Sequence record: EF517010.1
Source: a phage
Strand: one strand, 5' to 3'
Length of the DNA: 553 bases
In this document: piece by piece, positions 1 through 553 of the stretch
How the letters are laid out: every line of letters starts with the position of its first letter
How positions within the stretch are numbered: position 1 is the first letter of the stretch
Notes under the pieces: model-generated
The model's database searches: none
Told to the model about the DNA's origin: nothing
Seen by the model: only the letters and a program-made list of their open reading frames with translations
Program-made: the position numbers and the translations under genes

Positions 1-497
1 GGAACATCTGCGTAGACAATACTGCTAACAGTTACTGGCTCTCTCGTGTATCTAAAACGATTCCGGCACTGGAACACTTAAACGGGTTTGATGTTCGTTG
101 GAAGCGTTTACTGAACGATGACCGTTGCTTCTACAAAGATGGCTTTATGCTTGATGGGGAATTCATGATCAAGGGCGTAGACTTTAACACAGGGTCCGGC
201 CTACTGCGTACTAAATGGACTGACACGAAGAACCAAGAGTTTCATGAAGAGTTATTCGTTGAACCAATCCGTAAGAAAGATAAAGTTCCCTTTAAGCTGC
301 ACACTGGACACCTTCACATAAAACTGTACGCTATCCTCCCGCTGCACATCGTGGAGTCTGAAGAAGACTGTGATGTCATGACGTTGCTCATGCAGGAACA
401 CGTTAAGAACATGCTGCCTCTGCTACAGGAATACTTCCCTGAAATCAAATGGCAAGCGGCTGAATCTTACGAGATCTACGATATGGTAGAATTATAG
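1..497 (+). CDS. 1.3: ATP-dependent DNA ligase (T7 gene 1.3 family), 5'-partial, ending at an in-frame premature TAG at 495-497
   Basis: Frame with codons at 3-5, 6-8, ... has no stop from the window edge to 495 and reads NICVDNTANSYWLSRVSKTIPALEHLNGFDVRWKRLLNDDRCFYKDGFMLDGEFMIKGVDFNTGSGLLRTKW...YDMVEL*. This matches my recollection of T7 DNA ligase starting just after the motif I lysine (KYDGVRG, outside the window). Nucleotidyltransferase motif III (FMLDGE) is encoded at about 144-161. The ATG at 147 is an internal Met, not the start. Assignment is from memory, not a database search. Confidence 0.85.
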   Translation, partial: NICVDNTANSYWLSRVSKTIPALEHLNGFDVRWKRLLNDDRCFYKDGFMLDGEFMIKGVDFNTGSGLLRTKWTDTKNQEFHEELFVEPIRKKDKVPFKLHTGHLHIKLYAILPLHIVESEEDCDVMTLLMQEHVKNMLPLLQEYFPEIKWQAAESYEIYDMVEL

Positions 498-553
498 CAA
501 TTGTACGAGCAGAAGCGAGCAGAAGGCCATGAGGGTCTCATTGTGAAAGACCC
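498..553 (+). other. 1.3: In-frame continuation of the ligase reading frame downstream of the amber codon (motif IV region), 3'-partial; translated only if the TAG is suppressed or absent
   Basis: Same frame after the TAG reads QLYEQKRAEGHEGLIVKDP. EGLIVKD (531-551) is the conserved motif IV of ATP-dependent ligases and, as I recall it, matches the T7 ligase sequence following VELQ. There is no frameshift between the two segments. Confidence 0.75.

Follow-up and report, generated by a model that had tools for sequence, protein, structure and literature searches.

Classical ligase-deficient mutants of bacteriophage T7 were reportedly described by Masamune, Frenkel and Richardson in 1971 and by Studier in 1973. 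Gene 1.3, the DNA ligase gene, has also been removed from T7 and T3 by engineered deletion (Δ1.3), and the phage ligase is made nonessential by a normal host ligase (PMC2696425). Ligase-deficient phages are expected to grow where the host ligase is normal and to fail where it is defective (PMC2696425). With regard to the induction of mutations in T7, G:C>A:T changes prevail after mutagenesis with nitrosoguanidine or hydroxylamine, and nitrosoguanidine yields about four viable mutations per T7 genome per infection (PMC6042481).

In this work we analysed a stretch of 553 nt of phage DNA, referred to throughout as the window, in which the ligase frame is interrupted by an amber codon. As in the classical ligase-deficient T7 mutants and the gene 1.3 deletions, the phage ligase is predicted to be lost; unlike in those systems, the predicted loss occurs through a nonsense codon in a heavily mutated allele. 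The data lead us to propose that the window very probably derives from a heavily mutagenised laboratory T7 lineage, and that the amber codon is a tolerated passenger in its ligase gene.

Results

The window is part of T7 gene 1.3

Comparison with the T7 genome revealed that the window corresponds to bases 6593-7145 of V01146, within the annotated 'gene 1.3, DNA ligase' (6475-7554, 359 codons). Nucleotide identity with T7 gene 1.3 was 97.6% across the 553 bases, with zero gaps and a shared frame, and the window covers codons 41-223 of the gene on the + strand, starting at codon 40/41. The translated window matched PF01068, the ATP-dependent ligase adenylation domain, with 74.7 bits (cut-off 26.2), and gave a gapless end-to-end alignment with the solved T7 ligase 1A0I (E 1.7e-122). 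Motifs III and IV are both encoded in frame 3 of the window; the sequence FMLDGE corresponds to motif III of ATP-dependent ligases. The active-site lysine of motif I, K34 in T7, lies upstream of the window start.

Pfam assigns residues 9-240 of the full-length T7 ligase to the adenylation domain and residues 241-349 to the C-terminal domain PF17879. Here the TAG at codon 205 interrupts the frame while it is still inside the adenylation domain, ahead of the C-terminal one. Although orthologous to gene 1.3, the gene in the window is, as its sequence stands, a nonsense allele that does not encode a complete ligase. Other features were also looked for. Rfam gave zero matches at E values up to 1 on both strands of the window, and neither promoter-like sites, terminator-like sites nor repeats were found within it. 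A credible open reading frame was not found on the opposite strand of the window, where the longest frame has 49 aa. The features of the window are collected in Table 1.

Table 1. Features of the window on the gene 1.3 strand, numbered from its first base; substitutions are read from T7 to the window.
Position	Strand	Feature	Evidence
3..494	+	Open part of gene 1.3, codons 41-204; part of the adenylation (nucleotidyltransferase) domain	Translation, PF01068, 1A0I, V01146 annotation
74	+	G>A, synonymous, E64 GAG>GAA	T7 comparison; derived with respect to outgroups
98	+	C>T, synonymous, R72 CGC>CGT; also in T7 isolates K and K115	T7, outgroups, K/K115
108	+	C>T, synonymous, L76 CTA>TTA; also in T7 isolates K and K115	T7, outgroups, K/K115
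144..161	+	Motif III region FMLDGE, residues 88-93, intact	Sequence and translation; same in T7 and nearly all relatives
162	+	C>T, missense L94F, adjoins motif III; Leu in all relatives	T7, outgroups, relatives
168	+	G>A, missense V96I; Val in all relatives	T7, outgroups, relatives
212	+	C>T, synonymous, T110	T7, outgroups
242	+	C>T, synonymous, F120	T7, outgroups
361	+	G>A, missense G160E; Gly in all relatives	T7, outgroups, relatives
447	+	G>A, missense E189K; Glu in relatives, except one Asp	T7, outgroups, relatives
474	+	G>A, missense V198I; Val in all relatives	T7, outgroups, relatives
492	+	C>T, synonymous, L204 CTA>TTA, codon just before the amber	T7, outgroups
495..497	+	Amber TAG, codon 205, from CAG (Gln205) via C>T at 495	T7 comparison, relatives
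498..553	+	In-frame continuation of gene 1.3 past the stop, codons 206-223 plus 2 bases; untranslated barring amber read-through	Translation, alignments
501	+	C>T, synonymous, L207 CTG>TTG, two codons past the amber	T7, outgroups
531..551	+	Motif IV EGLIVKD, residues 217-223	Translation

An amber codon truncates the ligase gene

The frame starts at window base 3 and comprises 164 open codons (3-494), followed by the TAG and then, in the same frame, by QLYEQKRAEGHEGLIVKD. An earlier note on this DNA, made from the letters alone, had placed the TAG at 495-497 after about 164 open codons and EGLIVKD at 531-551 in the same frame beyond it; the translation showed both sets of coordinates to be exact, and the alignment to V01146 gene 1.3 bore out its estimate of about codon 205 of a T7-type ligase of about 359 residues. 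The alignment to T7 gene 1.3 that it had proposed places CAG opposite window bases 495-497. The base at 495 is C in more than 100 T7 records and in P82, LNA7, phiA1122, Bas102 and 13a, so that a single base change (CAG>TAG) made a sense codon into the stop. Codon 205 is CAG (Gln) in T7 and in 10 of the 10 natural relatives examined; the case that T7-group ligases in general end at this position, which the same note had named as contrary to its reading, is not what was found. The likeness to ligase downstream of the stop, also claimed there, holds both in the alignment with 1A0I and in the relatives. These data confirm that the stop codon in the window is real and truncates the T7 DNA ligase gene; a stop within this conserved open reading frame is not a chance feature of the frame.

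Set against the Pfam boundaries, termination after residue 204 leaves the adenylation domain 36 residues short, motif IV (residues 217-223) being among those lost, and takes away all of the C-terminal domain, in agreement with the earlier claim of a truncated product without motifs IV and V and the OB-fold domain. Motif V is presumably also among the 36 lost residues. The 204-residue fragment should be inactive as a ligase, a prediction based on domain anatomy and on what is known of the family, because it lacks motifs IV and V along with the DNA-binding domain at the C-terminus.

The codons around the stop read UAG-CAA-UUG (495-503), the UUG having arisen from the change at 501. This context is one base off the plant-virus leaky-stop context UAG-CAR-YYA, a signal that is not known to act in E. 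coli.

Searches for the exact allele were carried out in nucleotide and protein collections. A 41-base megablast query, designed so that no 28-mer within it could avoid the T at 495 or the neighbouring changes at 492 and 501, gave 0 matches among 50,697 phage records. Exact-pattern scans of viral, genome and metagenome contigs, the later pattern permitting either base at 492 and 501, gave 0 matches, and no match to the window whatsoever was obtained in plasmids and E. coli genomes. At the protein level, the 164-residue fragment, a query 97% identical to the T7 ligase, retrieved no T7-grade ligase from a large protein database, in which near-identical proteins appear to be either absent or missed by the word index; the sole match was a sequence of 212 residues, 76% identical, from a 1663-base contig.

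All differences from T7 are G:C>A:T transitions

The window differs from more than 100 mutually identical T7 records at the same 13 positions. All 13 differences, read from T7 to the window, are G:C>A:T transitions (8 C>T and 5 G>A), and across the 553 bases there are no transversions, no A:T>G:C changes, no indels, nor any other difference from T7; outside the 13 transitions the background is exactly that of laboratory T7. No ambiguous bases are present in the window. The earlier note, whose interpretation is supported overall, had overlooked the 12 further G:C>A:T changes with respect to T7: the amber does not stand by itself but belongs to a heavy load of mutagen-type hits.

The direction of these changes was established by comparison with natural relatives. 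LNA7, phiA1122, Bas102 and 13a retain the T7 base at 13 of 13 sites, and all 13 changes are therefore derived in the lineage of the window. The natural relatives themselves differ from T7 with mixed spectra, in which G:C>A:T changes account for just 10-33% (pooled 21%); under such a spectrum, the probability of 13 out of 13 is about 1.6e-9. In addition, the five missense sites and Gln205 vary little or not at all among ten relatives, the most distant of which have about 80% nucleotide identity, which indicates that the changes in the window are not natural variation. Two of the missense changes, L94F and V96I, fall just past motif III, and from their position the allele might be impaired even without the stop.

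Analysis of the sequence context revealed that 10 of the 13 hits lie at 5'-purine-G sites, as compared with a background of 50% (P = 0.046, marginal at 13 sites); the likelihood ratio for a context bias of 80%, such as that of T7 isolate K described below, over no bias is about 7 from these 13 sites. The two strands were struck about equally (P = 0.41 for 8 C>T vs 5 G>A).

With regard to coding effects, 7 of the changes are synonymous, 5 missense and 1 nonsense. By neutral expectation, the 264 possible G:C>A:T changes divide into 16 nonsense (6%), 54% missense and 40% synonymous. Had purifying selection acted before the stop arose, synonymous changes should be in excess, but the 7/13 observed do not significantly exceed 40% (P = 0.23). 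Since 16 of the 264 changes make a stop, 13 random hits give at least one with P = 0.56, and one nonsense change in the window is unsurprising. The amber is thus not special within the load, as the coding effects fit the neutral expectation.

Comparison with the mutation-laden T7 isolates K and K115

Isolates K (AY264775), K115 (AY264776), P and P82 of T7 belong to an accession series whose first record, AY264774, is the wild type of the Bull laboratory; PMC2680503 attributes this record to Bull et al. 2003 (J Mol Evol 57:241). Comparison of the complete K genome with this wild type revealed 413 substitutions in 39.1 kb, a density of 1.06%; G:C>A:T changes make up 389 of them (94%). These G:C>A:T changes occur at 5'-purine-G in 80% of cases vs a background of 51% (P = 7e-33). 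The mutagen history of K is deduced here from this substitution spectrum; the K and P lines are reportedly products of nitrosoguanidine mutagenesis.

The density of substitutions in isolate K varied widely among genes: gene 8 (0.31%) and gene 19 (0.45%) are at the low end, whereas gene 1.3 reaches 1.85% and gene 4.7 reaches 2.7%. Such a spread would fit purifying selection acting on essential genes while the line was being mutagenised. Gene 1.3 is among the densest of the larger genes, and 20 of its 20 changes are G:C>A:T. Nonsense mutations were found in the nonessential genes 4.7, 5.7 and 5.9, one in each, and nowhere else in the genome. These genes lie at 13083-13490, 16306-16515 and 16515-16673 of AY264775, where the depositors labelled them 'similar to gene ...'. 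The stops of isolate K are a precedent for mutagen-induced nonsense limited to nonessential genes.

The window resembles K and K115 in its nearly pure G:C>A:T spectrum, in having nonsense in a nonessential gene and in a similar density of changes in gene 1.3, and its 5'-purine-G context, marginal at 13 sites, leans in the same direction as that of K: the 2.35% observed in the window does not differ from the 1.85% of gene 1.3 in K (P = 0.58). It is about twice the genome average of K (P = 0.01), and such a doubled density needs either relaxed selection on gene 1.3 or a heavier treatment. Unlike in the window, gene 1.3 stays open in K and K115. Furthermore, K does not have 11 of the 13 changes of the window, the amber among them, and the window does not have 8 of the 10 changes that K carries in this stretch. 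The two changes in common, at 98 and 108, are identical in K and K115 and could reflect mutagen hot spots, a short shared history or coincidence; a test of shared ancestry with line K on the basis of these two sites was not significant (P = 0.08 under a uniform model and 0.14 when weighted by context). The window belongs to a mutagenised lineage that is independent of K, or an early sister of it at most.

Discussion

The amber codon described here is most likely unremarkable: such lesions, left by mutagenesis in the laboratory in phage genes that can be dispensed with, have been familiar for decades. The sequence of events that we propose starts from a laboratory T7 that would have been exposed heavily, and probably repeatedly, to a mutagen, most likely an alkylating agent such as nitrosoguanidine. 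Thirteen G:C>A:T transitions would have built up within the 553 bases, the C>T at 495 converting Gln205 into an amber. On a non-suppressing host, translation would end after residue 204. Nonsense hits in gene 1.3 would behave as near-neutral passengers, with the host's own ligase substituting, and the lesion would persist because the T7 ligase is dispensable while the host ligase works. We infer the identity of the mutagen, the loss of activity and the tolerance of the lesion from the pattern described above, whereas the stop, its position, the loss of the sequence beyond it, the purity of the spectrum, its derived polarity and the likeness to a mutation-laden T7 line were observed directly; the mutation load is that seen across 553 bases.

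An alternative, which we regard as unlikely, is that the window is a classical T7 ligase amber mutant that was screened for after one heavy mutagenesis, the amber being selected and the 12 other changes co-induced locally (compare PMC2680503). Ambers produced by G:C>A:T mutagens do typically arise through CAG>TAG, and three changes (492, 495 and 501) fall inside 10 bases. This clustering is, however, not significant (P = 0.14), and the short-range clustering of changes in isolate K is likewise not significant (P = 0.11). The density of 2.35% far exceeds the rate per cycle, about four viable mutations per 40-kb genome (PMC6042481), and it matches that of gene 1.3 in a genome with 413 substitutions.

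A passenger lesion from heavy mutagenesis remains the preferred reading, and a further question concerns the chemistry. The transitions might be due to deamination of cytosine rather than alkylation of guanine, through hydroxylamine, bisulfite acting on virions, heat, a deaminase mutator or a base editor, with the same outcome for the ligase. Hydroxylamine treatment of T7 also gives mostly G:C>A:T changes, with up to 8 mutations per genome (PMC6042481), and the near equality of the two strands (8 C>T, 5 G>A) fits this origin. The finding that 10 of 13 hits are at 5'-purine-G, which resembles the 80% of isolate K and is not expected from simple cytosine deamination, argues weakly against it through the likelihood ratio of about 7. 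We consider a deamination origin rather improbable, although the context of 13 sites is too little to tell nitrosoguanidine firmly apart from hydroxylamine, EMS, heat or deamination by enzymes.

It is also conceivable, with a very low probability, that the amber is read as an amino acid on a suppressing or recoded host, in which case supE would restore Gln and the gene would be uninterrupted. A Gln-inserting suppressor exactly reverses CAG>TAG at the protein level. The downstream frame is intact over the 18 visible codons, but a stretch of 18 intact codons carries no information on this point. No feature of the window requires such decoding, and 13 random hits give at least one stop in 56% of cases. 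Hosts without release factor 1, which decode amber as an amino acid, have been used to evolve T7; those populations acquired 7-12 non-synonymous point mutations each, with no new in-frame ambers reported and with no mutagen (PMC8923235). This study, on heat adaptation of T7 under an extended code, was considered as the source of the window and rejected, given that its genomes have far fewer changes, that synonymous substitutions are lacking and that no mutagen was used (PMC8923235). The specific outcome of a full-length ligase, with Gln or another residue, possibly a non-canonical one, at codon 205 on a suppressing or RF1-free recoded host, has in our estimate only a slight chance of being correct, and this same slight chance is shared with the weaker variant in which the UAG-CAA-UUG context gives appreciable natural read-through. 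If decoding of this kind were true, the phage would exemplify a gene that acquires a new amber with sense meaning where the genetic code is altered.

Similarly remote is the explanation that the T at 495 arose through a mistake in sequencing or assembly, or entered the consensus as a minority variant of a polymorphic mutagenised population, the true genome having CAG. Mutagenised populations do hold many low-frequency variants (PMC6042481), but the change at 495 is a C>T of the same type as the other 12 and needs no special explanation, and the window contains neither indels nor ambiguous bases. Finally, natural decay of the ligase gene to a pseudogene in a wild T7-like phage can be practically dismissed, as far as 553 bases allow, on the basis of the spectrum and the outgroups: natural Teseptimavirus relatives are numerous (80-94% identity), but none of the 13 differences is common to LNA7, phiA1122, Bas102 or 13a, the window is without the A:T>G:C changes and transversions that make up 67-90% of the differences in natural relatives (P about 1.6e-9), and the ligase gene is full-length in all annotated relatives.

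Regarding the significance of the amber as a mutagenesis passenger, gene 1.3 in the window is to be marked as a nonsense allele or pseudogene in annotation, and the sequence is to be flagged as mutagenised laboratory T7 and not as a variant of a wild phage. Because of this origin, it is unfit for comparative studies or tests of selection that deal with natural variation, and equally unfit as an example of a working ligase on which to train models. Outside annotation and provenance the significance is slight; the window offers a small and clean illustration of how, when a G:C>A:T mutagen is at work, stops accumulate in a dispensable gene as often as neutrality predicts.
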